Virus record (IMG/VR): IMGVR_UViG_3300023218_000003
Coordinates: 10,592-74,591 of that record
DNA: 64,000 bases
Reading direction: 5' to 3' (one strand)
Source of the DNA: a virus
Lineage: Duplodnaviria; Caudoviricetes
Shown here one piece after another: positions 4,117 to 58,727 of the stretch (within the stretch, counting starts at the first letter, position 1; every line of letters begins with the position of its first letter). Both the position numbers and the translations under genes were made by a program. The notes under the pieces are model-generated. The model was not told the origin of the DNA and made no database searches. It saw only the letters and a list, made by a program, of their open reading frames with translations.

Positions 4117-4188
4117 GCGCACGTGGCTGACTGGTAAAGCGATCGACTCTAAATCGACGACATGCGGGTTCGAATCCCGCCGTGCGCA
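4117..4188 (+). tRNA. tRNA with CUA anticodon (amber suppressor, tRNA-Sup)
   Basis: Cloverleaf: acceptor GCGCACG/CGTGCGC + A73; D arm GCT-GACTGGTAA-AGC; anticodon arm ATCGA-CT(CTA)AA-TCGAC, anticodon at 4149-4151; T arm GCGGG-TTCGAAT-CCCGC; CCA not encoded. Confidence 0.88.
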
Positions 4189-4562: not shown

Positions 4563-5219
4563 ATGAAATTGAAAGAACTGACATCAAACGCGCTGCATGA
4601 CAGCAGCTTCGTGCCTGACGAACTTGTCGGGCAACACGTATCGATCCCCGATCGCACATCTTCGCTGAACGTCTATCGCGTGAACGAAGACAAGTCGCTG
4701 ACTGAAGTGCTGCCGAAGAACAAGAAGCGTCGCGTGAAGAAGCGCGTCGACTTTCAGCATCGTGACAAGCGCGCGCTGCTGAAGATCAAGATCAAGTCGC
4801 TTGACGCTGAAATGCGAATCATTCGACTTGAAGAACAGAAGACGCCGTCGCTGTCGCGATACATCGAACTGCGTGCGCATCGCAAAGCACTGGGACAGAA
4901 GTCGCGTGCTGCGCAGCTTGCGCTTGCGTTCATTCGCGGTCGACGCATCGAACAAGTCGAGTCGCTTCCCGCGCCGACGACGATCAATTCGTTCGAACGA
5001 CCCGCAGACGTTGCGCGTCTGCTTGCTGACGTGCGAAAGAACATCATGACGTTCGCTGACAATCCCGAATCAGTGTCGACTGACGACGATCACGAACGCT
5101 GGCTTCGTGAAGCATCTGACTTCTTGATTCACGCAAAAGTCTACAGCGGCAGAGAAGGCGGCATCAGCAGCATCAGTGACGATGACGCGCTTCATGACTT
5201 GCGACTTGCGACAGCGTGA
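4563..5219 (+). CDS. conserved phage hypothetical protein
   Basis: LKIKIKSLDAEMRIIRLEE..HR..RAAQLALAFIRG resembles a recurrent phage family (from memory). Confidence 0.6.
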   Translation: MKLKELTSNALHDSSFVPDELVGQHVSIPDRTSSLNVYRVNEDKSLTEVLPKNKKRRVKKRVDFQHRDKRALLKIKIKSLDAEMRIIRLEEQKTPSLSRYIELRAHRKALGQKSRAAQLALAFIRGRRIEQVESLPAPTTINSFERPADVARLLADVRKNIMTFADNPESVSTDDDHERWLREASDFLIHAKVYSGREGGISSISDDDALHDLRLATA

Positions 5220-6034
5220 CGATAGATTTCGGCGCACTTCTCGACAGCGTGCGGCGCATACGGGAAGAAGAAGCCGTGATTGAACAGCTTCTGTGCTGAC
5301 AGCACGCACTGACTGCGCTTGATCTTCACAAGCTTCGAAAGACGTTCGTCGTTCATCCAAGCGCAGCGCAGCTTCAGCGCTTCAGCGATGTCGCGAGTCG
5401 TGACGAAGTGCGGGTTCGTCGCGTGAAAGATGCCCGAAGCGAAGTGCTTCTTGCGAATGATGAACAAGATCAGCGAAGTCAGATCGTCGACGCACGTGAC
5501 GCTGTTCTTGTGATTCACAAGCGTCGAATACTTCGACAGCTTGCTGAACAGATTGCGATCGTGAACGCGACCGTCGAACGGCAGTCTGATGCGCAAACTG
5601 ATCGGTTCATGTGCGTTTCGCATCGCGAATGTTTCAGCAAGAATCTTCGTCTGACGATAGACGCCCGTCAGAAGATTCGGCTGATCATCTTCAGTGAATT
5701 CGCAGAATTCGTCGCCGTCGAACACGCAGCCTGTCGACAAGTGAATCAGTCGCGTGTTCGTGACTGACGATGCGTCTGTGATCATGCGTGCAAGATCAAG
5801 ATTGTCGCGCATCGTGATTTCGACATGATCTTCACAGTCATCGATGTTCTTCTGACCTGCGAAGCCTGCTGCGTTGATCACGAAGTCGCACGCGCTGATC
5901 TGATCTGCGATCTGTTCTTCAGTCTTCGTCTGTTCGCGCGACAGCACGTGAAGTTCGATGCTGTGTTCTGCTAGTTTCTCGGCGATTGCGCTGCCGATGT
6001 ATCCGCTTCCGATGATTGCAATGTGTCGTTCCAT
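5192..6034 (-). CDS. NDP-4-keto-6-deoxyglucose 3,5-epimerase/4-reductase (NRS/ER, RmlD-like extended SDR; rhamnose synthesis)
   Basis: IIGSGYIG Rossmann motif; NAAGFAGQKNIDDCE, STGCVF, catalytic YRQTK, LRIRLP, RNLFSKL, NSVTCVDD, GIFHATNP follow the NRS/ER motif series. Confidence 0.85.
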   Translation of the reverse strand: MERHIAIIGSGYIGSAIAEKLAEHSIELHVLSREQTKTEEQIADQISACDFVINAAGFAGQKNIDDCEDHVEITMRDNLDLARMITDASSVTNTRLIHLSTGCVFDGDEFCEFTEDDQPNLLTGVYRQTKILAETFAMRNAHEPISLRIRLPFDGRVHDRNLFSKLSKYSTLVNHKNSVTCVDDLTSLILFIIRKKHFASGIFHATNPHFVTTRDIAEALKLRCAWMNDERLSKLVKIKRSQCVLSAQKLFNHGFFFPYAPHAVEKCAEIYRHAVASRKS

Positions 6035-8952: not shown

Positions 8953-9501
8953 TCACTTGCGCGAGAAGACAAGACCGCGCGCACGAATGAATTCACGCTT
9001 CATCGTCGAAGCGCCGCGCAGTCGCATCGTCAGTGCTTGATCAAGTGCGAAGCCGAAGTTCGCGAACAGTTCGATCCAGTATGTCGACGGCTGACAGTTC
9101 ACGTGATGATGACCGCGCTTTTTCGGCGGCGCTGCACTGATCACAAGATACTGCGGCGTCACGACAGTCATCAGACTGATCACGTTCGGCAAGAACTTCG
9201 CTTCGACGTGTTCCAAGAATTCGACGGACCACACGAAGTCGAAGTGTCGAAAGATCACATCGTCAGTGCAGACGCCTTTCGTGAAGTCGTGCAGAACGTC
9301 GGGCTTGCAGTTCACGTCACCGTCGACGCCGACTGCATCGATCTTCAGTTCGCGTGCAAGACGAACCTGACCGCCGGGGTCGCACCCGACATCGATCATC
9401 GACTTGCAGTTCAGATCGTCGCGCATGAATTCAAGCGCACCTTGATCTGTGTGCGTGATGTTCTGATGACCGCCAAGATGTTTCGGTGTATCTTTCGCCA
9501 T
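8953..9501 (-). CDS. class I SAM-dependent methyltransferase
   Basis: HLGGH, MIDVGCDPGG (motif I with G>D), VGVDGD, WSVEFLEHV, GHHHVNCQ. Confidence 0.8.
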   Translation of the reverse strand: MAKDTPKHLGGHQNITHTDQGALEFMRDDLNCKSMIDVGCDPGGQVRLARELKIDAVGVDGDVNCKPDVLHDFTKGVCTDDVIFRHFDFVWSVEFLEHVEAKFLPNVISLMTVVTPQYLVISAAPPKKRGHHHVNCQPSTYWIELFANFGFALDQALTMRLRGASTMKREFIRARGLVFSRK

Positions 9502-36974: not shown

Positions 36975-39191
36975 ATGGCAAATAGTGCAGATGTATCAAT
37001 CAACCTGATCGCGAATGCGTCGCGCTTTCAAAGCGGGATGCGAACGGGTCAGAATTCATTGCGCGGCTTCAACAACGAAGCGACGCGCACGAATCGTGTC
37101 GCGACAGCAGCGCGCGGCGGCATGTCGAAGATGATCGCGACTGTCGGTCGACTCGCTGCTGCATACATCGGAGTCACAGCAGCAGTGCGCGGCTTCACTG
37201 CATCAGCAAAGACATTCGCTGGACTCGAATTCGCGATGGCACGTGTCGAAGCGCTGACGTTCGCTTCTGCTGACGCAATGGCTGCGATGGAGTCTGAAGC
37301 GCGTCGACTTGGCGCGACGACGATGTTCAGTGCTGCTGAAGCTGCTGAAGGTCTTGCGTTCTTGTCGCAGGCGGGCTTCACAGCAGAACAGTCGATCGCT
37401 TCGCTTGAAGACACGCTGAATCTTGCCGCTGCTGGCAACATTTCACTTGGCGAATCAGCAGACATCGCGACGAACATCATGTCGGGATTCAGTCTTGCTG
37501 CTGAAGAAGCAGGGCGCGTCGCTGACGTGCTTGCGCTGATTCAAGCGCGCGCGAACACGAATGTTCAAGGCATGGGTGAAGCGATGAAGTTCGTCGCGCC
37601 GTTCGCGTCTGCACTCGGCATCAGTCTTGAAGAAGCATCTGCTGCTGTCGGTGTCTTGGCGAACAACGGCATCAAAGCAGGTCTTGCGGGTCGCGGTCTT
37701 GCCGCAGTGCTTGGGCTGATGATCAACCCGAACGAAAAAGCCGCTGCTGCGCTTGAAGCAGTCGGCATGTCTGCGTCTGACATCAACCCTGACATCGTCG
37801 GTCTTGAAACTGCGCTTTCGAATCTGTCGAAGTTCGACCCGCAGATTCTTGCGCAGATGTTCGGCGCAGCGAACTTCGACGTCGTCGCTTCTCTGATCAA
37901 GGGCGTCGCGAACGGCTCGCTTCCCGAACTGACAGCGTCGCTTGAAGACGCAGAAGGCACAGCAGAGAAGTCAGCAGCGACGATGTCAGACACGCTGATC
38001 GGTTCGTGGCGCGAACTGAAGTCTGCGATTCAAGAACTGATCATCGGCACGGGCGACACAGGTCTTGGCGAATTCTTTCGCGGGATGCTAGTCAACATCA
38101 CTGAAGGCGTGCGCGTTCTTCAGTTCGTCGTCGGCGTCGTGCGCAACGCGCTTGTGAACGGCGACATCGGCAGAGCATTCGGCATCAGCTTGCAGATCGC
38201 GGGCATCAACTTCTTGAATTCGCTTGCGCGCATCGGTTCATTCATCAGCGGTCTTGTGCTGTCGGGACTCGCGCCTGTCATCGGCGTCTTCGCTGGACTC
38301 GGCTACACGATTCAAGACACAGTCGTCAACGCGTTCAAACTTGCTGGCAACTTCTTGTTCGAAAAAGCGACTGCTGCTGCACTGACAGTGCTTGAAGCAG
38401 TGAACAAGATTCCCGGCGTCGATCTGTCGAGCATGATCAAGACTGTCGACGAAATGAACAAGATGGCGCAAGCGGGCATGACTGAAGCTTCGCACGTGTT
38501 GTCTGACGGCTTCATGTCGCGCATGAATGACAACATGACAGACGTCACTGATTCGCTTCTTGAAGCGGGCGCTGACATGATGGCGGGCAACGACGGATTC
38601 GGAAACGACATCGCGATCGATACGTCTGATCTTGAAGGTGAACTTGACGGCATCATCGAACGAAATTGGCCCGACGCTGTTGAAGAAGCGACGAAGAAAG
38701 GCGTCGACGAAGCGACGAAAGACGGCGGGCTTCCCGAACCCGAACTGACGCTTGATGAACTGAAGAAGAAAGAAGCAGAGAAGAAAGCCGCTGAAGAAGC
38801 AGAGAAGAAGCGCAAGCAAGAAGCAGAGAAGCGACAGCGTGAAGAAGAAGCTGCGATGAAGAAAGCGCAGCGTGAAGCTGAACGTGCTGCTGAACGTCGT
38901 GCGCAACGTGAACAGCGACTTCGCGAGTCGACGAAAGTCGATCAGTTTCGATCTGTCGGCGGCGGTGGCGCTGCATTCAACGTCGGCGCATTCTTGGGAC
39001 TCGGCACGCGCGACGGCATCACAGCGCTTGGCGCAGGCGCAGGCGGGCCGCTTGGCGCTGCACGTGTCGGCGGTCAGCGTGAAATCACTGTGCTGAACGA
39101 CATCAAAGCACTGCTTCAGCAGATTCGTGATCGAATCAATCCGTCGACTGGCGCGACGGGCACGGGGCTTCAACTTTCAATCGAAGAATAA
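36975..39191 (+). CDS. tape measure protein (TP901 family)
   Basis: EFAMARVEAL..EARRLGATTMFSAAEAAEGLAFLSQAG; AEKSAATMSDTLIGSW. Confidence 0.92.
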   Translation: MANSADVSINLIANASRFQSGMRTGQNSLRGFNNEATRTNRVATAARGGMSKMIATVGRLAAAYIGVTAAVRGFTASAKTFAGLEFAMARVEALTFASADAMAAMESEARRLGATTMFSAAEAAEGLAFLSQAGFTAEQSIASLEDTLNLAAAGNISLGESADIATNIMSGFSLAAEEAGRVADVLALIQARANTNVQGMGEAMKFVAPFASALGISLEEASAAVGVLANNGIKAGLAGRGLAAVLGLMINPNEKAAAALEAVGMSASDINPDIVGLETALSNLSKFDPQILAQMFGAANFDVVASLIKGVANGSLPELTASLEDAEGTAEKSAATMSDTLIGSWRELKSAIQELIIGTGDTGLGEFFRGMLVNITEGVRVLQFVVGVVRNALVNGDIGRAFGISLQIAGINFLNSLARIGSFISGLVLSGLAPVIGVFAGLGYTIQDTVVNAFKLAGNFLFEKATAAALTVLEAVNKIPGVDLSSMIKTVDEMNKMAQAGMTEASHVLSDGFMSRMNDNMTDVTDSLLEAGADMMAGNDGFGNDIAIDTSDLEGELDGIIERNWPDAVEEATKKGVDEATKDGGLPEPELTLDELKKKEAEKKAAEEAEKKRKQEAEKRQREEEAAMKKAQREAERAAERRAQREQRLRESTKVDQFRSVGGGGAAFNVGAFLGLGTRDGITALGAGAGGPLGAARVGGQREITVLNDIKALLQQIRDRINPSTGATGTGLQLSIEE

Positions 39192-39903: not shown

Positions 39904-40497
39904 ATGGCAAGAATTCGATGCAACGACAAGCAGCTTGAACAAGTTCTGAACTATATTCTTGCGAAAGCTGAAGGCAGAAAAGCGCCAGAAATTAGCGTCG
40001 GCAAGGGCATGTTCGCCCCGCACATCGACGATGATCATGTCGTGATCGAATCGCGTGGCGGCGGTCGTGGCGGTGGCGCGTGTCGCAAGTGGTCGATCAC
40101 TGTCAGCACGAAAGACGGCGGCGCTGTCGCGACGCTGAACAGCGGCACGATCAACGGCATCGCTGCGTCGAATCAGGGCGAAGAAGTCAGCTTCAGCAAG
40201 AACGCTGCTGCGATCTACTTCGTCGCAAGCGTAGTCGCGAATACGGGAAGCACAGTGTCGTGGGAATTCTCTGCTGAAACTTCGCAGCCCGAACAGACAG
40301 TCAGTGAAGGTCAGCCGTCTGACTTTCAGTTCACTGTCGCGACGCTGATCGGAGGCGTGCTGAAGACTTCGTTCTGCGGCAACGTCACAGCGACATCGTC
40401 GCAAGCATTCACGACTTCGAAGAACAACCCGAAGCCGGGTGAAGAACCGTTCGTGCGTCACTTCACGTGGCAAGTATCTGACGATGGTGTCTGCTGA
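39904..40497 (+). CDS. tail tip-associated protein
   Basis: Position; beta-rich. Confidence 0.55.
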   Translation: MARIRCNDKQLEQVLNYILAKAEGRKAPEISVGKGMFAPHIDDDHVVIESRGGGRGGGACRKWSITVSTKDGGAVATLNSGTINGIAASNQGEEVSFSKNAAAIYFVASVVANTGSTVSWEFSAETSQPEQTVSEGQPSDFQFTVATLIGGVLKTSFCGNVTATSSQAFTTSKNNPKPGEEPFVRHFTWQVSDDGVC

Positions 40498-40499
40498 TC

Positions 40500-42956
40500 A
40501 TGGGCTTGTCGTTCATCACTCCCGACAAAGGCGTGCAATATGTGCCGCTTCAGATCAGTTCGTCGTCGATTTCATCATCGTCTGTGACTGGCGGCGGAAC
40601 GACTGAAGTCGGGCTGACGACTTCATTCGTGAACGAAGGAGAGAATGCAACGACGTCGACGAATTCGACAAGTGACGGAACAACATCACAGACACAGGCA
40701 GCATACACCGAAAACAAGTTCGTTCGAAACGCAAGCAGCACAGGTCTGACTGACTTCGCTTCTTTCACGCAAGAAGGATCATATGAATTTTCTTGGGAGT
40801 CATCATCGACTGACAGAGACAGTGACGGAAACGGCGGCAGCGCTTCAGTCAGTGCGTCTGGCGCATCGGCATTCACGTCGTCGTCTTCGCGCGGCTTCAC
40901 TGATCAAACAATCGTGAACGGGTCGCAGATAGAAATCAAAGCGACGACACAGCAAGACGGAACGTCGTCGACTTTTTCAACAACGATTGAATGGGTGAAG
41001 ACTGTCGTTGAATACGACGCTGTCGGTCGCGGCGCTACAGTCGCAGGATCGAAAACTACGACAGCAGAAACGCAGTCATTCGCTTCGAAGCTTACGACAG
41101 GCGAAGTGCTGACATCTTCGACAACGAACGCGGGAACAGGCGTGTCTACCGCAAGCACGACGACGACATCGACGAACTTCATCGCTTCATGGCTTTCGAC
41201 GAACAGATCGAAACTGACAACGACAGCGCCGTTCACAGAACGCGCAAGCATCACTGTGTCTGAATCTGTAGGTTCATTCACTGTCGATGGATCAAAAGCT
41301 GTTGCAGATCGATCGATTCGGATTGCGACGAACGCTGACTTCTATCCGATTGGCATCGTGCGTGAAATTGAAGGCGGTGGCGTTGACATTCTGTTCGATG
41401 ATGATCGCGAAATCAGATCATACAGTCGATCTGACAAAGCAGTCAGCTTCGTGAACGGCGATAGAACATACAAACCGAAGACACGCGAAGATGATCAGAA
41501 TGTCACGTTCATTACTGTGAACGCATCAGAAGCGACGAAGACGCGCGAAGTCACGATCACGGGAAATCCGGCACACAATTCAAGCGAATCGAAGTATGAT
41601 GCTATCGGGACAGAACAACGCACGTTCTGCGAAGGCAGCACGACGGGAACGTATGCGCACAGAATCACTTCGACCGCTTCGATCGAAGAAAGCGACGAAG
41701 ACACGTATCTGTCGACTGTGACTGATGCGCTGACGACAGAATCGACTGTGACGACGAACTTGATTTCGACCGCAAAAACGACGGTGAATATCAATCATCC
41801 CGAAGTCGACGCGTCTTCTATCTTCACGACTTCAACTGTCAACACGTCGACGAATTCTTCGACGACAGTCACTGTGCTGTCGAACAACGGCGCTGTCATC
41901 GTCGGTGATGCATCAACAGACACAGAAACGCAGATCGAAAACGGCGCGACATCGATCACGCAGGGCGGCGGCTACACTTTCGGTAATGATTCGAATCGTG
42001 CAGAACTGAAAGTTCAGCGACCGTATTACGAAGGCGGCGTTTTGATTCTCGGCAATCAAAGCATGACGATGAACTACACGCGCACAGTCGCAGGCTATGC
42101 GCCGTTCAACATGCCGAAAGATGCAGAACGACCGAACCCGTTCTTGGGCTTCACGACTTCGCTTGTGTCGTCTGAAGGCTTCGCTTCGTGGTCGTATCGA
42201 TCAGACGGCGCGATTCAGCACTTCAACAGAATCACGAATCTTGATGACACGCCCTGTCGCACGATCAGTGAAACATTCACGCACAGCGACGTCACGTTCG
42301 CACAGACGATCACTGATTCAGACAACATTCAGTTCTTCGATCGAACTGTGACGCGCGTCGATGATCTTGAAGTCGTCGAATCAGTGATTGAAGCATCGAC
42401 AGGCACGAAGACATTCACGACGACGAATTCGAACGGTGACGAAGTCGAGTCGTCGACAACAACAGGGAACGGGCACAGCGTTCCTGCTACGACGACGACT
42501 TCAGCACTTGTGACGATGTCGCGCACGTGGACGACTGGCTTCATGACTGATGATGCGAACACAGCAGCGAACGCGACAGCACGTTCGCTGACGTATCGCG
42601 GCAAACACGGCAACAAGGGAACGATCGTCGTCGAACTATGCAACAGCATTCAGCACACGACGTTTGAATCAACTGCCAGACTGGGAATCTTTCGCGGCCC
42701 GATCGAAGTCACTGTGCGCGCACCGTATCACTTCAGCGTGACGATGCGTGATTCGAAGTCGACAACACTGACAGAATATTCGAACGGTGATCGCAACGCT
42801 GACAAGAAAACAGAAGCACTTCAGCTTGATCGTGATGTCGAATACAGCATCAGCGCGAACAGTCTTGTCGGCCCGAATGTCGGTGGACCGTCACAAGTCG
42901 ACGCTGCAACGTATGATTTCGAAGGCTATCAGGTGTTGAAAGTCGACACAGACTGA
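40500..42956 (+). CDS. Ser/Thr-rich (mucin-like) tail/virion protein
   Basis: 818 aa; about 36 of the first 100 residues are S or T by hand count, with SSSS/TTTT runs throughout. Confidence 0.75.
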   Translation: MGLSFITPDKGVQYVPLQISSSSISSSSVTGGGTTEVGLTTSFVNEGENATTSTNSTSDGTTSQTQAAYTENKFVRNASSTGLTDFASFTQEGSYEFSWESSSTDRDSDGNGGSASVSASGASAFTSSSSRGFTDQTIVNGSQIEIKATTQQDGTSSTFSTTIEWVKTVVEYDAVGRGATVAGSKTTTAETQSFASKLTTGEVLTSSTTNAGTGVSTASTTTTSTNFIASWLSTNRSKLTTTAPFTERASITVSESVGSFTVDGSKAVADRSIRIATNADFYPIGIVREIEGGGVDILFDDDREIRSYSRSDKAVSFVNGDRTYKPKTREDDQNVTFITVNASEATKTREVTITGNPAHNSSESKYDAIGTEQRTFCEGSTTGTYAHRITSTASIEESDEDTYLSTVTDALTTESTVTTNLISTAKTTVNINHPEVDASSIFTTSTVNTSTNSSTTVTVLSNNGAVIVGDASTDTETQIENGATSITQGGGYTFGNDSNRAELKVQRPYYEGGVLILGNQSMTMNYTRTVAGYAPFNMPKDAERPNPFLGFTTSLVSSEGFASWSYRSDGAIQHFNRITNLDDTPCRTISETFTHSDVTFAQTITDSDNIQFFDRTVTRVDDLEVVESVIEASTGTKTFTTTNSNGDEVESSTTTGNGHSVPATTTTSALVTMSRTWTTGFMTDDANTAANATARSLTYRGKHGNKGTIVVELCNSIQHTTFESTARLGIFRGPIEVTVRAPYHFSVTMRDSKSTTLTEYSNGDRNADKKTEALQLDRDVEYSISANSLVGPNVGGPSQVDAATYDFEGYQVLKVDTD

Positions 42957-42970
42957 TCGATCGTTCTTGC

Positions 42971-44158
42971 ATGGCAACGACACAGAAGAAGCGCGTCGCG
43001 ATCGTGACGTGTGCGACGAAATCCTACGTCTACGCGATCGACGCATTCATGCGCGCAGTTTCGCGCAACATCTATCACTTGCAGAAACATCGACCGAACG
43101 AATACGAAATCAGACTGATCTTCGTCGGTGATGAAGAAGCATGGAGACACACGCGAGAAATCACGCAGCACTTGTTCGACGGCGACGGCAAAGACTGGGA
43201 CAGAATCTGTGACGTGCAGCACTTCGTCGGCAACTGGACTGAAGGCGAGAACTACAAGCATCACGCACAGCACACGATCGCACAGATGCGCACGAAGACG
43301 TTCGAACTGTCGCGCAGATGGAACGCTGACTTCTGCTGGTCACTCGACAGTGACGTGCTACCGCCCGACAACGCGCTGCTGTGTTCACTTCAGATGCTTG
43401 ACTTCGATGGCGGCTACTATTCGATCGCGTGCTGTCCCTACCCGTCGCAAGGGGGCGGGTCGTTTCTGACGGGTCGCGGCACTCGCTTCAACACGATCTT
43501 GCCCGACTTCGATTTCGAAGAACGTGACGTGTCTGAAGACATCGCGAAAGAATGGGCTGAACTGTGCGCTGAAGTCGATGCTGATCCCGAGAATGTCGAA
43601 CTTGCGCGCAAGCGTCACGACATGATGAAGCAGATCGAACAGACGTGCCCGCCGAAGTATGGCGGCAACATCTGGAAGCTGAACGCTGAACACGGCTGGC
43701 GTCGTCGCGGCTGGTTCGACTTCGCGTATCCCGCGATCGGTCGCGGCGCTGTCGTGCCGACTGACTGGTGCGGATTCGGCGCGACACTGATGAACGCTGA
43801 TGCACTGTCAGTCGCAGACTTCACGGGCTACGACGGCAACGGCACTGAAGACTTGTTCGTCGTCTGGAAGCGCTGGTTCCCGCGCGATCTGAAACTGTGT
43901 TCTATCCCGCATTGCCCGTGCGATCACGTCGTTCGCACTGGCGGCGACAAGCGCAAGATCGTTCACGTTCACGCGTATCACGAAGAACACGAAGAAACGA
44001 AAGATCATCTGCGTCGCGAGAATCGCCCGTTCTATCAGCACACTGTCGGCGAAGAACACGACGACGCGAATGACGGCGTGCCCGCGATCGCTGAAAATGA
44101 TCAGCAGCAAGTCGAGTCGCCGACGCAGCAGAAGAAGCGTCGACGCAAGCTGAAGTGA
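42971..44158 (+). CDS. GT-A fold glycosyltransferase
   Basis: RVAIVTCA, DxD motif WSLDSDV, WCGFGATLM, TEDLF. Confidence 0.75.
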   Translation: MATTQKKRVAIVTCATKSYVYAIDAFMRAVSRNIYHLQKHRPNEYEIRLIFVGDEEAWRHTREITQHLFDGDGKDWDRICDVQHFVGNWTEGENYKHHAQHTIAQMRTKTFELSRRWNADFCWSLDSDVLPPDNALLCSLQMLDFDGGYYSIACCPYPSQGGGSFLTGRGTRFNTILPDFDFEERDVSEDIAKEWAELCAEVDADPENVELARKRHDMMKQIEQTCPPKYGGNIWKLNAEHGWRRRGWFDFAYPAIGRGAVVPTDWCGFGATLMNADALSVADFTGYDGNGTEDLFVVWKRWFPRDLKLCSIPHCPCDHVVRTGGDKRKIVHVHAYHEEHEETKDHLRRENRPFYQHTVGEEHDDANDGVPAIAENDQQQVESPTQQKKRRRKLK

Positions 44159-44255
44159 CGCTGTTTGTTTGTTTGTCAAAAAACTGCGACGATTTAACAA
44201 ACAAATCTTTTTTAACATAATCCACTTGACGCGCTTTTTTCGTGTCAACAGATCG

Positions 44256-44283
44256 CTGGACATCGCGCGAAAAACGACGCAGA
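44256..44283 (+). promoter_or_regulatory. late promoter-like motif (tail fibre)
   Basis: CTGGAC-N9-AAAACG-ACGCAGA. Confidence 0.65.
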
Positions 44284-44291
44284 CTGATCGC

Positions 44292-47200
44292 ATGTCCCGC
44301 AGAATGATTGTCTACGTCGACGGCACTGAAAGACGCGTCGTCGAATCGCCGTTCACGCGAAGCACTGGTCAGATTCCCGACATGTTCACGGGAGAGAAGA
44401 TCACGCTTGATGTCGTGCCGCTTCGTGAAGTTGAAAAAGGCAGCGCGACTGCATACGAAATCGATGACAGCTACAACAGCGACACGTTCAAAGTCGGCGT
44501 CGGCGTCGTCGATGTTCCGCCGTCTTCGGGCAGCTACAAGATCACATACAAGACCGACACGACGATCGCGCTGGACTACGATTCGACAGCGCAGCAGATT
44601 CAAGACGCGCTGAACGATGCGTCGATGACTGATCTGCTGGCTGATTCGCCGAACGGCGTCAGCGTCACGGGCAATTTCGAAACTGGCTATCGCATCACGT
44701 GGGATTCGACGGGCGCAGTCGACGACTTCGGCAGTGACGAAGTGAATCTGCTTCCCGAATCTGTCGTCGCATTCACGACTGAACGCGAAGGCGACACGGG
44801 CATCAGCGAAGTCGTCATGCTTCGACTGATGAAGAAGCAAGCGGGACTGACGACTTCTGCTTCTTCGATTCCTACCGGCAGCATGTCTGTCAGTCAGATC
44901 ACTGCGGGTTCGCGCAAGACTCGCGAAATTTTCGACATCACTGCTGTCGCTGACACTGCGCCTGTTGCGCAGCGAGAAGAAGCACGTGCAGTCGCAGTCG
45001 GCGGCGCGTTTCACGTCGCGACGTTGACGACAGTCGCAGACAGCAGCGACAGTCTTGATGGGAAATATTTCGTGCTGTATGACGACGAAGGCAGCGTTGC
45101 CTTCTGGATCGATACTGATAACAGCGGCACGACGATCCCGTCTGCTGCTGCGCTTCTTGATCGCAGCGTCGAAATCACGACGATCGAAACAGACGACAGC
45201 GACGGCGTCGTTGCAGACAAGATCGCGACTGCGATCAACAACGACAGCAAGTTCAGTGCGACGCATGACGGCAATGTCGTGATGATCACGTATTCGACGA
45301 TCGGTGCGCACGGCGCTGCTGCTGCTGGCACTTCTGGCTTCACTGCTGCGACTTCGACGACAGGCGCATCGACCGACAATTACGACGGCACGTATTTCTA
45401 TCTGACGGCGCTGAACGCTGACGGCGAAGAAGAAGTTCACGCGTGGTATTTTTCGCAAGACGGCACGACTGACCCGCCGACTGCTGCGCTTGCACTCGAC
45501 AGCGATCTGACTGAAATCACATACGGCACGACTGACACTGCGCAAGAAATGGCATCGACGATCGCGACGTCGATCAATTCGAACGCGCTGTTCAGTGCAG
45601 TCGCAAGCGGCACTGAAATCCACATCACGCACGTCAACGCTGGCGACGTCAGCGACATGAACGAAGGCGATTCGCCGTTGACGAATCTGTCAGTCACTGA
45701 AAACGGCAGCGATTCTTCGCTGGACGGAAAGCACTTCATTGCATACGAAACTGACGGCGAAGGCGGCGAACAGTCGCGCGCATTCTGGTTCAACATCAGC
45801 GGCAACGCTTCCCCGTCAGGCACTGCACTGACTGCTGATCGCACGACTGAAATCACGACGATCAGCAGCGGCGCGAAAGCACACGAAGTCGCATCTGCTG
45901 TCGCATCTGCTGTCGATGCACTCGACACGTTCAGCGCAGTCGCGAAAGGCACGAAGATCAACATCGAATCGTCTGAAGGCTACGCATTCACTGACGCATC
46001 TGCTGAAACGTCTGGCTTCACTGTCACGAAGATTCAAGACGGCGGCACGGGAAGCGACGCATCTGCACTTGTCGAAGTGACGTTCAGCGAACAGGCGATC
46101 GGCGGCGTCTACACACTTTCGATCGACACGGGCGGCGGCGCGCAGACGACTGCGGGCATTCCGTGGGACGCGACGCCCGAACAGATCGTCGCAGAACTTG
46201 AAGAACTACCGAACGTCGCAGTCGATGACGTCACTGTCGAAGGCGCGCTTGGCGGCGATCTGCGTATCGGCTTCAGAAACAATCTTTCAGACACAGCAAT
46301 CACAGTCACTGTCGACGACGACGGCATCAAGTGGATCGAAGGCAAGCGATTCACGCTTGATCTGAACACGACGTCGGCTTTCTCGCTGCTTTACGGTCTG
46401 GACGAACTTGAATGCATTCTGGAAGTCGAAGCGACGCAGGGCAGCACATACACCGTCAAGCTTGTTCACGCGCAAGTCACACTGAAGAACGGTCTGATCG
46501 ACTCGACTGCGTTGTCGCCGTCGCCGCAGCTTTCGTGGTATACGCAAGCAGAAGTCGATGCGCTAATCATTCATCACGAAAAGACGATCACGTCGCTGAC
46601 TGGCGGCACATCGTCTGATCTTGACAGCATCGCAACGACTTCGCTGACGCCCGAACGCGCAGTGTTCTTCTACGACAACGACAACAGTGAATATGTGATC
46701 TATGTGCTGAAGTCGGGCACTGAAGCAGAGTCGTCGCCTGACATCATTCGACCTGACGACTTCGCTTCGTCGACGAATGAAAAATACTGGGAACGCGTCG
46801 ACATTCAGCCGACAGTCATCACTGATCACGGCGAACTTGATGGTCTGACTGACGACGATCACACGCAGTATCTGCTTGTCGACGGCAGTCGCGCGGGAAC
46901 AGGCGTTCAAGAATTGCTTGGTCTGAACTTCACTGACTTCGCAGTGAAGACTGTGTCGTCGGGCACTGTCACGCTGACACAGACGCTGACGATCATCGCA
47001 GCAGAGTCAGGCACGACTGACGACGTCGCGACGTTCAGTGCAGCGAAAGGGCACGGCGATCTTCTTGTCGTGCAAGCTGACAGCGGCGACACGATCACAA
47101 TCAAGCACGGCACAGGCAACATCAGCACGACAAGCGGCGAAGACTTGACGCTGTCAGGCAGTGATCTGCTGATGTTTGTCTACGACGGCACGAACTGGTG

Positions 47201-48137
47201 CGAAATCGGCGATTCGAACGCAAGCGTCACTGATTACATTCACAGCGACGTCACGATCACTGGACTTGTCGGAGGCACGTCGTCTGATCTTGATTCGATT
47301 GCGACGACTTCGAAGTCTGCTGGCTATCGTCAAGCGGTCGTCGGCACTGACGGTCGACTTTACACATACGAACTGCAAGCGTCGCCGACACTTCCGACGA
47401 CGACGATCACAAGCGTCAGCACGGGCAGCAACACTGTCGATGTCGGCACGACGACTGAACCGATTCCCGGTCAGCGTTTCTTGCTGTCGACGACGAACAC
47501 GCTTCCCGGTGGAACGAATGATTCGACGCTGTATTTCGTGAAGTCGTTCAACCCTGTCGGGAACGACATGTCGTTCAGCACTACGCGCGGCGGCAGTGCA
47601 GTGAACATCACTTCAAGCGGAACAGGAACACACACGATCACATGGGTCGACACGCCGTTCACTGTGCTTCCCGAAGACTACGACAGCGGCACGAACGACA
47701 AAGCGTGGGTGCTTGTTTCTCCCGTCTTCAACATGTCGTTCGAAGTCATCGGGCCGACGACTGATCATTCGACTGGATACTTCGTCATGCCGGGAACGTG
47801 CAATCATCTGAAGATCGACGACGTGCAGATGTATGTTCAGAGTCTGCCAAGCGGCAGCGGAAGCGGCACGCTGACATGGGACATGCGATCGAATTCAGAA
47901 GAAAACGTCGCGGGCAGCAATCACAGTCGACTGTTCAGTTCGACTGGCGCGCAGTCGTCGCTGATTCGTCGTGCAGTGCGCGACGATAGCGAATCGTTTC
48001 GTGCTTCGAACAGATTCATCCCGCGACAGAACGTGCTTGATCTGTATATTTCAAACACTGGTGCGGGCGTCAGCGGCACGACTGCTGGCAAAGGCGCGAT
48101 CATCACTGTCACTGGATGGGAATGCGATCTTGAATAA
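44292..48137 (+). CDS. large tail fibre/receptor-binding protein with internal repeats
   Basis: Starts after late promoter 44256; three ~110-aa DG(K/T)(Y/H)F repeats; two GGTSSDLDSIATTS modules. Confidence 0.75.
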   Translation: MSRRMIVYVDGTERRVVESPFTRSTGQIPDMFTGEKITLDVVPLREVEKGSATAYEIDDSYNSDTFKVGVGVVDVPPSSGSYKITYKTDTTIALDYDSTAQQIQDALNDASMTDLLADSPNGVSVTGNFETGYRITWDSTGAVDDFGSDEVNLLPESVVAFTTEREGDTGISEVVMLRLMKKQAGLTTSASSIPTGSMSVSQITAGSRKTREIFDITAVADTAPVAQREEARAVAVGGAFHVATLTTVADSSDSLDGKYFVLYDDEGSVAFWIDTDNSGTTIPSAAALLDRSVEITTIETDDSDGVVADKIATAINNDSKFSATHDGNVVMITYSTIGAHGAAAAGTSGFTAATSTTGASTDNYDGTYFYLTALNADGEEEVHAWYFSQDGTTDPPTAALALDSDLTEITYGTTDTAQEMASTIATSINSNALFSAVASGTEIHITHVNAGDVSDMNEGDSPLTNLSVTENGSDSSLDGKHFIAYETDGEGGEQSRAFWFNISGNASPSGTALTADRTTEITTISSGAKAHEVASAVASAVDALDTFSAVAKGTKINIESSEGYAFTDASAETSGFTVTKIQDGGTGSDASALVEVTFSEQAIGGVYTLSIDTGGGAQTTAGIPWDATPEQIVAELEELPNVAVDDVTVEGALGGDLRIGFRNNLSDTAITVTVDDDGIKWIEGKRFTLDLNTTSAFSLLYGLDELECILEVEATQGSTYTVKLVHAQVTLKNGLIDSTALSPSPQLSWYTQAEVDALIIHHEKTITSLTGGTSSDLDSIATTSLTPERAVFFYDNDNSEYVIYVLKSGTEAESSPDIIRPDDFASSTNEKYWERVDIQPTVITDHGELDGLTDDDHTQYLLVDGSRAGTGVQELLGLNFTDFAVKTVSSGTVTLTQTLTIIAAESGTTDDVATFSAAKGHGDLLVVQADSGDTITIKHGTGNISTTSGEDLTLSGSDLLMFVYDGTNWCEIGDSNASVTDYIHSDVTITGLVGGTSSDLDSIATTSKSAGYRQAVVGTDGRLYTYELQASPTLPTTTITSVSTGSNTVDVGTTTEPIPGQRFLLSTTNTLPGGTNDSTLYFVKSFNPVGNDMSFSTTRGGSAVNITSSGTGTHTITWVDTPFTVLPEDYDSGTNDKAWVLVSPVFNMSFEVIGPTTDHSTGYFVMPGTCNHLKIDDVQMYVQSLPSGSGSGTLTWDMRSNSEENVAGSNHSRLFSSTGAQSSLIRRAVRDDSESFRASNRFIPRQNVLDLYISNTGAGVSGTTAGKGAIITVTGWECDLE

Positions 48138-48145
48138 ATGAATCG

Positions 48146-49066
48146 ATGACGGACATTCTTCGCAATATGGGACGACGCGACGAAGCTGATACAGCAAAAG
48201 ACAGATTCGAAAGACCGAAGAAGACGCCGTTGACGGACTGGCTTCCGTATCGCGGCGTCAATCTTCACAAGTCGTGGCAGGGGCCAGACAAAGTGAAGCC
48301 GTGGCATCGACAAGTCACGATTGCGGTTCCGTTTCTCGACACTAGCGAAACACTCGACACGCTGATCGAATCGTGGCTTCTTCAGACGATCGACGCGAAC
48401 ATCGTCATCATCGACACGGGTTCGTCTTCGCGTCACATGGGTCTGCTTGACGAATACGAACGCACTGACCCGCGAATCGAAGTTCATCGTCTTCGATTCA
48501 AAGCAGTGAAGCATCCGTCTGATCCCGTCGCGATCGCGATGGACTTGGCATTCTCGCTGTGTTCGACCGACTATCTGTTCGCGACGCACGCTGACTGCTT
48601 TCCCGCACGACGCAATCTGATTGAAGACATGATTCAGATTCGTCACGACACGAATGCGCCTGTCGTCGGCTATCAGATCACAGATCGCGAGAACATCAAC
48701 ACGAAGGGATGGGTCGGACACACAGCGACGCTGTTCGACATGCAGCAAGCTGATCTTCTGAATCTTGCATGGTCACAGCGCAGATACTGTCATCTGACGG
48801 GAATGGATCACTTCGGCAACAACAGATGCAACGGCTACCCCGACACAGAATTCTTGATCAACGAACAGCTTGATCGCGCGAACGTGAAACGCGCAATCAT
48901 CGGCTACGAATCGAACTACGTCACAACAGACGACGACAACATTCTTCACGTGCGCAGCTACGGTTCTTCGAAGCTGTATTCAAAGCAGCACTTTCAACGT
49001 GCAAACGGTGACATGGCTGATGCGTTGCGCGTGACGCAGCAGAGAATCAAAGAATGGACATCATGA
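48146..49066 (+). CDS. glycosyltransferase family 2-like
   Basis: VTIAVPFLD, IVIIDTGSS, YLFATHADCF (DxD-position), YPDTE. Confidence 0.8.
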   Translation: MTDILRNMGRRDEADTAKDRFERPKKTPLTDWLPYRGVNLHKSWQGPDKVKPWHRQVTIAVPFLDTSETLDTLIESWLLQTIDANIVIIDTGSSSRHMGLLDEYERTDPRIEVHRLRFKAVKHPSDPVAIAMDLAFSLCSTDYLFATHADCFPARRNLIEDMIQIRHDTNAPVVGYQITDRENINTKGWVGHTATLFDMQQADLLNLAWSQRRYCHLTGMDHFGNNRCNGYPDTEFLINEQLDRANVKRAIIGYESNYVTTDDDNILHVRSYGSSKLYSKQHFQRANGDMADALRVTQQRIKEWTS

Positions 49067-49830
49067 AGCACGGAGAAGAAACAGCAGAAGAAATCGAAGC
49101 AGCATTCGTCGGCGTGAACAACGGCGTCGCAGCACTTAGCGAATGCAGACGCACACGACCGACACTGATCAGCGGCACTGGGCGCAGCGGCACGACAGCA
49201 CTTGCACGCTGCTTCTTGAATAGCGACGACGTCAAGTTCGTCACGCAAGATGAAACTGACGGCAGCAATCTTGAAGTCGCTGAACTGAACAAAGCACTTG
49301 CTGCGCATGACAAAGTCGCATGGGCTGAATTCATTCGAAAGTCTTCTGAAGAAGTCGCGCATGATTTCGTCTTCAAGAATCCGCGATTCGAAATCCATGC
49401 GTTGCGTGAAGATTCTGATGACTTCAGTGAAGTGCTTCGCGACTGCAACGTGATCGTGATGACGCGCGATCCGTTTCTTGTCGCGACTCGCGAATGGTCG
49501 ATTCACGCACGTCGAAACGCTGAAGAAAAGGGACGCACATTCGGCGATCACGTGCGCAAGTGCTGCGCTGTTCTTGGGCTTTCGATGAAAGGCGCAATCG
49601 AACTGTCGAAATCGATGGGCGTGCTTCTCGTTTCGTATGAAAAGCTGATCACGCAGCCGCAGCAAGTCGCTGACGAAATCAACGTGTGGTTCGGTCGCGA
49701 ACGTCTGACGAAGAAAGCGATCCCGAAGTCGATCATGCCGAACAACCCGTATTATCTGGAACGTCAGACGCTTGGCTGGATGCGTCAGATGAAAGACATG
49801 AAAGAACGTCGCGCGCGCGGCGAACGCTGA
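49054..49830 (+). CDS. sulfotransferase
   Basis: 5'-PSB ISGTGRSGTT, FKNP, 3'-PB MTRDPF, VSYEKL; possible C-terminal extension to 49975 in +1 frame. Confidence 0.82.
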   Translation: MDIMKHGEETAEEIEAAFVGVNNGVAALSECRRTRPTLISGTGRSGTTALARCFLNSDDVKFVTQDETDGSNLEVAELNKALAAHDKVAWAEFIRKSSEEVAHDFVFKNPRFEIHALREDSDDFSEVLRDCNVIVMTRDPFLVATREWSIHARRNAEEKGRTFGDHVRKCCAVLGLSMKGAIELSKSMGVLLVSYEKLITQPQQVADEINVWFGRERLTKKAIPKSIMPNNPYYLERQTLGWMRQMKDMKERRARGER

Positions 49831-49958
49831 CACGTTCGAACGTCTGTCGCCCGCGAATGTATCGCGTGACGTGCCCGACTTCCCTGACGGCTTCTGCGAA
49901 GCGCTGTTCGGCATGAATCGCGATCTGTATCGTCGCATGAACTACGACGCGAAAGTGA

Positions 49959-49986
49959 CTGGACAGATCGAATGATTCGTCGCAGA
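49959..49986 (+). promoter_or_regulatory. late promoter-like motif (lysis cassette)
   Basis: CTGGAC-N9-GATTCG-TCGCAGA. Confidence 0.55.
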
Positions 49987-49994
49987 ATGTCTGC

Positions 49995-50285: not shown

Positions 50286-50650
50286 TGCTGAAGAACGGCA
50301 AGAACATCGCTGACGCACGCGGCGTCACGACGTCTGAATTCTGGCTGGTGATCGTCATGATCGTCGCGTCAGTCGTTGGCGAAGCGGGCGATCTTTTCGG
50401 CGACAGTCACGTCTTCGCGATCGCTGCTGTCGTCGCTGCGCTGATCTACAAGATCGGGCGCTTCGTTCTGAAATACAATCGCAGCAAGCACATCGATGAC
50501 GTCGACGCGCTGTCGCAAGAAATCGCCGACACTGTCGACGAACTTGAACTGACGCTTGAAGAACTTCGACTTCAGAAGCGAGAAGAAGACGAAGTGCGTC
50601 ACGACGAAAAACTGTCTGCTGGCCCGATCGAAATCCCTGACACGAAATGA
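50285..50650 (+). CDS. putative holin
   Basis: TTSEFWL then two TM segments, charged C-terminus; directly before endolysin. Confidence 0.65.
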   Translation: MLKNGKNIADARGVTTSEFWLVIVMIVASVVGEAGDLFGDSHVFAIAAVVAALIYKIGRFVLKYNRSKHIDDVDALSQEIADTVDELELTLEELRLQKREEDEVRHDEKLSAGPIEIPDTK

Positions 50651-51513
50651 GTCGATTCACCTACTACAAGAACGCGCAGCGATTCAAAGAACGAATCATG
50701 CGACTTCAGCGCGCAGTCGGCGTGACTGACGACGGCATCATCGGGCCGATCACTCTGACTGCATTCGAAGACAAGCTTCTGAAGATCGACGAACTGAAGT
50801 CTGACAAAGTCACGAACGACGACGTCGCGACTGAAGTCGAAGGTGAAATCGACGGCGTCGCGATCAGCAAAGATGCGCTTGATCTGATCGTGCAGTTCGA
50901 AACTGGCGGGAAATCCTACTACGACAGATTCATTCGTCGCCCGTCGTGGCCGGGATATTCTTCGGGCGTCACGATCGGCTTCGGTTACGATCTTGGCTAC
51001 AACACAAAGACGTCGATCGAACGTGACTGGAGTCATGAACTTTCACGCAGCGATGTCGATCGTTTGAAGAACGCTGCGGGCATTCGTGGCAGTTCTGCTT
51101 CTGCGCGTGCGTCTTCTCTGCGCGACATTCAGATTCCGTGGGAAACGGCGCAGCGCGTCTTCTTTGAATCGACGTTGCCGAAGTATGTCGCGCTGACGAT
51201 TGATCGCGCTTTCCCTGATGCCGAATTCTTGCACCCGCACGCGCTTGGCGCGCTTGTCAGTCTTGTCTTCAATCGCGGCACTTCGATGTCGGGAAGTCGA
51301 CGTCGTGAAATGCTGACGATTCGAAAACTGATCGAATCGCATGATGAAGGCGATCCGAATCTGTATCATGCGATCGCTGATCAGATTCTGTCGATGCGTC
51401 GACTGTGGGCGCGCAAAAACGGCAAGACTGATCTGTGGGGCCGACGCGCAGCAGAAGCAGAACTTGTGAAGAAGTCGCTGACCGACAGCAATCCCGACGT
51501 GTTTCGCGTCTGA
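50647..51513 (+). CDS. endolysin: PG-binding domain + pesticin/T4-lysozyme-like muramidase
   Basis: LQRAVGVTDDGIIGPIT; FE..SSGVTIGFGYDLG; ALVSLVFNRG. Confidence 0.85.
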   Translation: MSRFTYYKNAQRFKERIMRLQRAVGVTDDGIIGPITLTAFEDKLLKIDELKSDKVTNDDVATEVEGEIDGVAISKDALDLIVQFETGGKSYYDRFIRRPSWPGYSSGVTIGFGYDLGYNTKTSIERDWSHELSRSDVDRLKNAAGIRGSSASARASSLRDIQIPWETAQRVFFESTLPKYVALTIDRAFPDAEFLHPHALGALVSLVFNRGTSMSGSRRREMLTIRKLIESHDEGDPNLYHAIADQILSMRRLWARKNGKTDLWGRRAAEAELVKKSLTDSNPDVFRV

Positions 51514-58521: not shown

Positions 58522-58727
58522 ATGAAATCGAAGAAGTGAACTTCAGAAAGAAGCACAACAAGCTTCACTGGCTTCTGTGCTTGTATCGTCAGATCAGATT
58601 CAGACGAACGATCTTCGCGTGTCGTGTATATTTTCGACCGTTGAAAAAATTTTCAAGACGACTGATGCAGTCAGATCGACGCAAGCTGAAGACGCAGAAA
58701 TATCATGAACGAAGAAGAAGAAATTGA
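58518..58727 (+). CDS. possible small ORF
   Basis: ATGA overlap with dnaB, but contains operator palindrome; may be partly non-coding. Confidence 0.3.
   Translation: MNEIEEVNFRKKHNKLHWLLCLYRQIRFRRTIFACRVYFRPLKKFSRRLMQSDRRKLKTQKYHERRRRN
58641..58656. promoter_or_regulatory. operator-like palindrome upstream of polA
   Basis: TTGAAAAAATTTTCAA. Confidence 0.75.

Follow-up and report, generated by a model that had tools for sequence, protein, structure and literature searches.

Gene content of the block

We analyzed a 64,000-nucleotide stretch of phage DNA, hereafter the window, which corresponds to bases 10592-74591 of the 74,591-bp IMG/VR record IMGVR_UViG_3300023218_000003 (Caudoviricetes); all gene coordinates are given in window numbering. 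Our subject is a block of genes in its tail region that encodes a conserved small protein (g197), a Ser/Thr-rich protein (g818), a glycosyltransferase (GT) of the GT-A fold (g395), a tail fiber, a second glycosyltransferase (g306), and a sulfotransferase (g258). A first-pass annotation of this DNA had read the block as a system with which the phage O-glycosylates its own Ser/Thr-rich tail proteins and then sulfates the glycan. Overall, that interpretation is partly supported: a GT-A gene paired with a Ser/Thr-rich gene recurs across uncultured lineages, which supports a cassette of enzyme and acceptor. The genes of the block are as follows.

39904..40497, plus strand: g197, conserved small protein (phmmer homologs in 28 related loci)
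40500..42956, plus strand: g818, Ser/Thr-rich tail protein of 818 amino acids (aa), the proposed glycan acceptor (from composition and gene order)
42971..44158, plus strand: g395, soluble GT-A fold glycosyltransferase of 395 aa (AlphaFold2 [AF2] model and structure search)
44292..48137, plus strand: tail fiber/depolymerase-like protein of 1281 aa (PF25692, Phage_depo_C)
48146..49066, plus strand: g306, GT2-family glycosyltransferase, a lineage-variable accessory (PF00535, 31.8 bits; cut-off, 23.3)
49054..49830, plus strand: g258, sulfotransferase of the 3'-phosphoadenosine 5'-phosphosulfate (PAPS) type (PF00685, 27.2 bits; cut-off, 22)

The five genes from g818 to g258 exist at the positions that the first-pass annotation gave, all on the plus strand and within the distal tail module. 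The tight spacing that it described holds in general and breaks before the fiber, whose ATG at 44292 follows a gap of 133 nt. This ATG is the most likely start, as in relatives; an alternative TTG at 44169 would yield a 1322-aa form, in which the Phage_depo_C domain occupies residues 934-1010. The fiber has a Ser plus Thr (S+T) content of 23.8% and contains three tandem repeats of ~110 aa (residues ~251-570; window 45042-46000; pairwise z of 14-16 versus shuffles), which suggest repeated binding domains. The sequence GGTSSDLDSI also occurs twice, at residues 771 and 994 (window about 46602-47300). A phmmer search of the fiber against PDB sequences returned nothing significant.

The GT-A enzyme and its family

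The gene that starts 14 nt downstream of g818 matches no family in Pfam, PHROGs, or NCBIfam, so the GT-A nature of its product had to be shown by fold; a phmmer search against PDB sequences was equally without a significant match. The AF2 model of g395, computed from a 42-sequence alignment (predicted local distance difference test [pLDDT], 91.6; predicted template modeling score [pTM], 0.90), consists of a single Rossmann-like alpha/beta/alpha GT-A domain. Foldseek matched it to the human collagen galactosyltransferase COLGALT1 (9evj) with an E value of 2.7e-9 and a probability of 1.00, and VIA aligned 255 residues to the same enzyme (Z, 20.7; rmsd, 3.6). VIA Z scores reached 18.7 for both yeast Mnn9 and the GT domain of LH3 and 15-17 for many GT2-type enzymes and STIV A197, ranging from 15 to 19 across GT-A enzymes. 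Among viral models in BFVD, the neighbors of g395 are glycosyltransferases of giant viruses and uncultured phages.

The DSD motif that the first-pass annotation noted for its GT-A enzyme lies in the segment WSLDSDVLPP. It forms the DxD of the model (D126-S-D128, after strand 121-126) and is invariant in 42 homologs, as are E293, D294, H314, and H319. Since the DxD, the E-D pair, and the two His residues are invariant across these diverse homologs, g395 looks like a catalytically working enzyme. No transmembrane (TM) segment is present in g395, g306, or g258 (maximum KD19 hydropathy, 0.99-1.41). The C terminus of g395 (window 44128-44158) is strongly basic (QQKKRRRKLK), and its closest relatives retain GQKRRRKLK.

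The g395 family has at least 570 members, none of them named, and contigs of 60-85 kb encode many of them. No member was found by tblastn in 50,697 GenBank phage records. With no match in Pfam, PHROGs, or NCBIfam, the family is an unclassified GT-A lineage.

The candidate acceptor

The S+T content of g818 is 30.3% (T, 17.2%; S, 13.1%), the highest among the 52 window open reading frames (ORFs) of at least 150 aa (mean, 12.7%; standard deviation, 4.7%), and it climbs to 50% in windows of 50 aa. The earlier description of g818 as mucin-like agrees with these values and fails on proline content (2.2%) and on repeats: TRF found no array in 40500-42956, and self-BLAST found no internal protein repeat. 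Strictly taken, g818 is not mucin-like.

Divergence is the other salient feature of g818. The protein is 52% identical to its ortholog in the related locus L003, compared with 77-91% for the flanking genes; it has only 3 matches among 1.84 billion representative proteins, and a phmmer search of all fetched loci recovered two near relatives only. In the alignment of these few homologs, Ser and Thr positions are kept as Ser or Thr in 66-78% of columns, and other positions are identical in 31-50%. The protein is hypervariable and evolves very fast, yet its S/T character is better conserved than its remaining residues. Structure prediction gave no usable model, with an AF2 pLDDT of 29 from a 5-row alignment, a low confidence that may mean disorder or few homologs, and an ESM Atlas model with a pLDDT of 0.28 and a TM score of at most 0.27 to anything.

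A Ser/Thr-rich gene adjoins the GT-A gene across lineages

To place the block among its relatives, GT-A loci were fetched from viral contigs (38) and from prokaryotic genome assemblies (16), and their ORFs were called; dereplication at 80% GT-A identity left 36 lineages, and the neighborhood was defined as ±10 kb. A GT-A ORF was called in 46 loci, and in 30 of these the ORF that immediately precedes it has an S+T fraction of at least 0.28, a value reached by only 1.3% of the 227 other ORFs of at least 300 aa (mean, 0.137). In 28/36 dereplicated lineages, the direct neighbor of the GT-A gene is the large ORF with the highest S+T fraction in the neighborhood (0.25-0.43). Even where the GT-A gene lies on the opposite strand (L034, L038, L157, and L158), it still abuts the S/T-rich gene. 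Because the sequences cannot be aligned, homology between g818 and the S/T-rich ORFs of other lineages is unproven.

The conserved cassette starts with g197, whose C-terminal domain is conserved in alignment A5 and which has no match in Pfam, PHROG, or PDB (profile search). In 28 loci, the S/T-rich ORF is immediately preceded by a g197 homolog, and every locus seeded from the g197 family carries a GT-A gene (16/16); the seed was a five-sequence subset of the alignment, and the loci found were mostly on already-known contigs.

The tailoring genes behave differently from this core. Among GT-A loci, g306 and g258 are confined to the near relatives of the window. The proposed check, whether the enzymes accompany S/T-rich proteins across relatives, gave a strongly positive result for g395, in the 28/36 lineages mentioned above; the GT2 and the sulfotransferase stand outside the conserved cassette. 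Three large-genome relatives, with contigs of up to 191 kb, have a four-gene cluster in the order GT4-DUF4214, GT9, a 280-aa ORF, and GT-A (L027:5761-11089, L038:6010-11029, and L040:5890-11062). Pfam support for the GT4/GT9 cluster exists in L027 and L038 only, and GT9 passes in L027. In L038, the GT4-DUF4214/GT9/GT-A cluster abuts the S/T-rich tail gene, which suggests a variable glycan-building gene set around a fixed core.

Close relatives carry two extra ORFs. One, of 258 aa, lies between the GT-A gene and the fiber (L042:3861-4637), where the window has its 133-nt gap (44159-44291); the other, of 196 aa, follows the sulfotransferase (L004:5309-5899), where the window has a gap of 164 nt (49831-49994). 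Neither belongs to a Pfam family, and both are missing from the window.

The GT2 enzyme and the sulfotransferase

The GT2-like enzyme of the first-pass annotation proved to be one: g306 passes the PF00535 gathering score, also in a six-frame search of the genome (32.8 bits). Its family, for which a protein search gave 90 matches and which is represented in 132 viral loci, has invariant D90, D133, H148, and D150 and conserves T-H148-A-D150 in place of D-x-D.

At L098:8892-11393 and about 60 similar loci (L062-L140), a g306-type GT2 is divergently paired with a protein that combines GT2 and tetratricopeptide repeats (TPR). A sigma-70 region-2 protein comes next, and this myovirus GT2/GT2-TPR group has T4-type baseplate genes on one side and tube/sheath genes on the other. 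The structural regions of phages thus contain a second conserved module of glycosyltransferases.

The sulfotransferase call was likewise correct, since g258 passes the PF00685 gathering score and contains all three of the motifs named (GTGRSGTT, RDP, and YEKL). Its PF13469 score (24.1 bits) is below the cut-off of 27, and its homologs are annotated with PF13469. All 7 homologs retain G41-T-G-R-S-G-T-T48 and R138-D-P140 unchanged; we take these to be the 5'-phosphosulfate-binding loop and the 3'-phosphate-binding motif of sulfotransferases, respectively. The ESM Atlas model has a TM score of 0.65 to sulfotransferase clusters, its neighbors being bacterial Sulfotransfer_3 clusters. The best PDB profile matches of the family are TPST1 (E value, 0.03) and heparan sulfate 3-O-sulfotransferase (HS 3-OST; E value, 0.27), neither of which is significant, and phmmer against PDB sequences gave nothing significant.

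The start of g258 overlaps the stop of g306 by 13 nt, both in the window and in close relatives, and homologs of the two genes share contigs of 74591, 15481, and 17388 bp (size-matched). The sulfotransferase homolog P0127 comes from an 80,218-bp contig with a GT-A homolog and no listed GT2 homolog. Viral and metagenome scans for the sulfotransferase returned the near relatives L004, L042, and L043 only, and tblastn of g258 against the 50,697 GenBank phage records gave no match. The family was also not found in 5 metagenome-assembled genomes (MAGs) that carry GT-A loci or in 301 Planctomycetota genomes. Given the latter result, and as far as the sampled genomes go, the sulfotransferase gene was not recently copied from a host gene for surface glycans.

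Candidate hosts

Of the 16 GT-A loci from genome assemblies, 13 are in MAGs labeled Planctomycetota (4) or Verrucomicrobiota (9), and three of these come from contigs that measure 0.28-1.19 Mb. The closest MAG match to the window is a Planctomycetaceae-binned contig that also has g197 and fiber homologs. Two loci are putative prophage contexts (L046 and L055), with an almost empty PHROG annotation and with integration argued from contig size only. Taken together, these matches are suggestive of Planctomycetota/Verrucomicrobiota hosts and fit the earlier guess of a polysaccharide-degrading host.

Genome setting

The ends of the record (bases 1-60 and 74532-74591 in record numbering) share a ~45-nt sequence around a poly-A run that differs slightly in size between them. 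The record is classed as "linear, 85% complete"; because its ends share this sequence, the genome is probably complete and either circular or terminally redundant. Upstream of the block, the gene order is that of a head and tail region, and the tape-measure gene anchors the block in the tail module.

16263: large terminase
20049: portal
27134: capsid protein
33434: head-tail adaptor
36975..39191, plus strand: tape-measure protein (PF10145, 130 bits; PHROG tape-measure families, best E value 1e-74)
5192..6034, minus strand: RmlD-like NAD(P)-dependent sugar-nucleotide reductase (PF04321, 76.3 bits, cut-off 27; PF01370, 44.8 bits)
8953..9501, minus strand: S-adenosylmethionine-dependent methyltransferase (PF13489, 27.9 bits)

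The order after the tape measure is g229, g197, g818, g395, fiber, g306, and g258, followed by a 96-aa ORF, a TM-bearing 121-aa ORF, a lysozyme-like ORF, and then an AAA ATPase, DnaB, and PolA. A search of the 74.6-kb record for an integrase (PF00589) found none. Based on this gene order and on the integrase result, the block is the distal tail module of what is probably a lytic, siphovirus-like, uncultured phage of ~74.6 kb.

Nearly all genes are on the plus strand, and the reductase and methyltransferase genes (5192-6034 and 8953-9501) are two minus-strand genes amid them. The RmlD-like reductase scores 63.9 bits against TIGR01214 (rmlD), below the equivalog cut-off; it could be the source of a 6-deoxy-sugar donor, with an inferred tie to the cassette, and both minus-strand genes could be part of a glycan pathway. 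APS (adenosine 5'-phosphosulfate) kinase, RmlC, and a nucleotidyltransferase were not found in the genome of the window phage.

Several other features of the genome deserve mention. A tRNA with anticodon CUA (an amber suppressor, labeled tRNA-Pyl by ARAGORN) is encoded at 4117-4188 on the plus strand. TGA ends 73/85 ORFs and TAG ends 5/85; TAG or TGA recoding that would alter the cassette ORFs was considered and rejected, the five genes being intact under table 11. The lysozyme/pesticin-like ORF (50647-51513; weak matches) has a CHAP-domain ORF in its place in the relative L004 (6576-7259), the endolysin having been swapped between the window phage and this close relative, which also has an additional SNF2 helicase. 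The N terminus of the family A DNA polymerase (58705-61650, plus strand) contains a region of the uracil-DNA-glycosylase superfamily (PF03167, 23.2 bits, slightly below the cut-off). Megablast of the block against GenBank phages gave no match, and a promoter/terminator scan was at chance level. Among sequencing runs, one is a probable source sample of this DNA, and small shares occur in aquatic, freshwater, and estuary metagenomes, with no RNA run among those listed.

A putative self-glycosylation cassette

Since the comparative data support a cassette of GT-A and acceptor, we consider tail-protein O-glycosylation the best reading of the block. In it, the GT-A enzyme modifies the neighboring S/T-rich tail protein, and variable tailoring enzymes elaborate the glycan; we would give this proposal slightly less than an even chance. 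The conserved core would consist of three genes, encoding a g197-type small protein, a hypervariable S/T-rich tail protein, and a soluble GT-A. In the infected cytoplasm, g395 would use a host or phage-modified nucleoside diphosphate (NDP)-sugar to O-glycosylate Ser/Thr residues of g818 before tail assembly, and it would possibly also act on the moderately S/T-rich fiber. Lineage-specific tailoring would then elaborate the glycan, here through g306 and the translationally coupled g258, with the RmlD-like reductase encoded elsewhere in the genome, and in the large-genome relatives through GT4-DUF4214 and GT9. The identity of the acceptor, the O-linkage, and the role of the glycan (shielding or host binding) are parts of this model that we infer.

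The translational coupling and late-operon position of g306 and g258 make it plausible that both act on this glycan; even so, we hold it to be a rather doubtful extension of the model. Of the two steps in the original proposal, O-glycosylation is the one that the GT-A/acceptor cassette backs, and sulfation, whose putative enzyme has only 7 homologs, has little support. More speculative still is the idea that a sulfated, possibly deoxy-sugar O-glycan on the tail tip mimics the sulfated polysaccharides captured and degraded by planctomycete and verrucomicrobial hosts and acts as an adsorption bait or ligand, to which we assign little likelihood.

A number of observations weigh against self-glycosylation. 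L027 and L040 carry the GT-A gene and have no S/T-rich ORF within 10 kb, and in a few further GT-A lineages the S+T fraction is only 0.21-0.24. Adjacency inside a conserved tail module can persist without any enzyme-substrate relation. GT2 relatives of ~40% identity lie in myovirus structural regions in 79/80 viral loci fetched, with neither a GT-A gene nor an S/T-rich neighbor nearby, and for this reason the g306 family is not specific to the cassette. The sulfotransferase is confined to its 7 known homologs, with gene context covered for all but P0123, P0125, P0126, and P0127. Finally, the virion status of g818 is deduced from gene order only, and its S/T richness could belong to a beta-rich fiber fold.

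Alternative explanations

Some of these points would suit enzymes that modify host envelope glycans (lipopolysaccharide, exopolysaccharide, or cell-wall glycoprotein), whether to mask receptors against debris trapping or to exclude competitors; adjacency to tail genes would then be the mere location of accessory genes. The tail-fiber/lysis junction often houses such genes, and g306 and g258 sit exactly there, before the TM-bearing ORF and the lysozyme-like gene. The distant GT2 family members without an S/T-rich neighbor and the GT-A genes of L027 and L040 without an S/T-rich ORF are also consistent with this explanation, as is one source that labels GT2 homologs "involved in cell wall biosynthesis." We nevertheless regard it as unlikely, if not strikingly so. 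The GT-A gene stands beside an S/T-rich gene in 28/36 lineages, even when inverted, which is unexpected for a general surface-modifying gene; the enzymes lack membrane segments, and the 301 Planctomycetota genomes yielded no member of the sulfotransferase family. In addition, the phage has its own DnaB and PolA and no integrase was found, suggesting a lytic lifestyle; the integrase result argues against classical lysogenic conversion.

A different objection is that the S/T-rich protein is not an acceptor at all and instead owes its composition to a rapidly evolving, beta-rich fold for receptor binding, with the GT-A-fold protein employed otherwise, in tail-tip assembly or infection (as a virion-associated or chaperone-like protein) or as an enzyme with a small-molecule or lipid acceptor. 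The g818 models of both predictors are strand-rich, at low confidence; hydrophobic and aromatic residues are scattered through the protein, and its low proline and lack of tandem repeats are unlike mucin domains. The GT-A gene, conserved at 40-60% identity, behaves as a core module gene would. Three results make this explanation quite improbable in our view: the DxD, the E-D pair, and the two His residues invariant in 42 diverse homologs of g395 point to a working enzyme; the S+T fractions of 0.29-0.43 are far above those of the other large ORFs of the same loci, fibers (~0.24) included; and L038 has a cluster of additional GT genes at this position.

As regards the sulfotransferase, its substrate might be a protein (by tyrosine O-sulfation, of the tail or of the host) or a non-glycan small molecule. 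TPST1 (E value, 0.03) is its best PDB profile match, ahead of HS 3-OST (E value, 0.27), the R-S-G-T-T form of the 5'-phosphosulfate-binding loop is shared, and the P0127 contig (80,218 bp) pairs a sulfotransferase with a GT-A homolog and no listed GT2 homolog. However, neither E value is significant and the acceptor is not determined by the fold family, and the 13-nt overlap of g306 and g258 together with their co-occurrence on at least three contigs favors a shared pathway, so we think direct sulfation improbable. Hypermodification of phage DNA bases by the glycosyltransferases and sulfotransferase, as an evasion of restriction, seems to us very improbable. A glycosyltransferase-based form is known in phages (PMC13326640; bioRxiv 10.1101/2023.12.21.572611), and nucleotide modification based on glycosyltransferases and sulfotransferases is reported in PMC10829341, citing Iyer et al. 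2013. Yet the genes discussed here are in a tail module, away from those for replication and nucleotide metabolism, and the GT-A gene tracks the tail protein across lineages. Moreover, no thymidylate-synthase-like hydroxymethylase was found in the phage genome, nor was there a Tet/JBP match, in a search whose control gave no signal anywhere.

Relation to known systems and implications

So far, phage-encoded glycosylation of the virion is on record for a few mycobacteriophages, in which it influences antibody recognition. The examples given in PMC12363180, citing Freeman et al. 2023, are Che8 (gp110), Corndog (gp38), and Myrna. As described there, cytoplasmic phage glycosyltransferases act on the phage's own virion proteins, which is shown for those phages and proposed here; their glycans are carried by the capsid and tail tube, whereas our candidate acceptor is a hypervariable tail-tip protein encoded beside the glycosyltransferase, and no sulfotransferase figures in the description. 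There is no sequence relation between the systems, as tblastn of g395 against the 50,697 GenBank phage records gave no match. The mycobacteriophage hosts are Actinobacteria; here, bacteria of the Planctomycetes-Verrucomicrobia-Chlamydiae (PVC) group are likely.

Bacterial adhesins with dedicated adjacent glycosyltransferases, such as the serine-rich repeat proteins with GtfA/B, AIDA-I/Aah, TibA/TibC, and HMW1/HMW1C, offer another parallel. In them, too, a large Ser-rich binding protein is encoded beside a soluble cytoplasmic glycosyltransferase that acts before export or assembly, and accessory glycosyltransferases differ by lineage; a GT9 (heptosyltransferase-family) gene is found in the L027 cluster. 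In contrast, the adhesins are bacterial proteins with true repeats and secretion systems and have no homology to g818, and g395, unlike GtfA/B, is a GT-A enzyme whose nearest structures are COLGALT1, Mnn9, and LH3. Gtr-type O-antigen modification in lysogenic conversion resembles our block in that phage glycosyltransferase genes lie near tail-fiber or tailspike genes; it differs in that, here, no integrase was found, the enzymes have no membrane segments, and the glycosyltransferase gene is conserved with an S/T-rich tail gene and not near an attachment site. Giant viruses with glycosylated fibrils or capsids (Mimivirus and chloroviruses; PMC9614988) encode GT-A and sugar-nucleotide enzymes, including 6-deoxy-sugar steps, and Mimivirus R699 and a Klosneuvirus glycosyltransferase are among the structural neighbors of g395. 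These are eukaryotic viruses with full NDP-sugar pathways, whereas only the RmlD-like reductase was found here, with RmlC and a nucleotidyltransferase not detected.

Our search of the literature found no described equivalent of this cassette. Its new features are that a glycosyltransferase has a fixed pairing with a tail-tip protein that is hypervariable, that the uncultured lineage is broad, that PVC bacteria are the likely hosts, and that a sulfotransferase is present. The GT-A family is worth adding to family databases as an unclassified glycosyltransferase lineage. If the bait idea held, a bacteriophage would be seen for the first time to make a sulfated viral glycoprotein with virus-encoded enzymes, and a phage-side glycan to mediate host recognition; more generally, a sulfated virion glycan would be a new phage chemistry, notable for hosts specialized in sulfated polysaccharides. 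If the self-glycosylation model is true, the modification would be widespread in environmental phages (a family of >570 members, all uncultured), would target the tail tip, the part of the virion that decides host range, and would be diversified by swaps of tailoring enzymes, GT2 and sulfotransferase here and GT4 and GT9 elsewhere.

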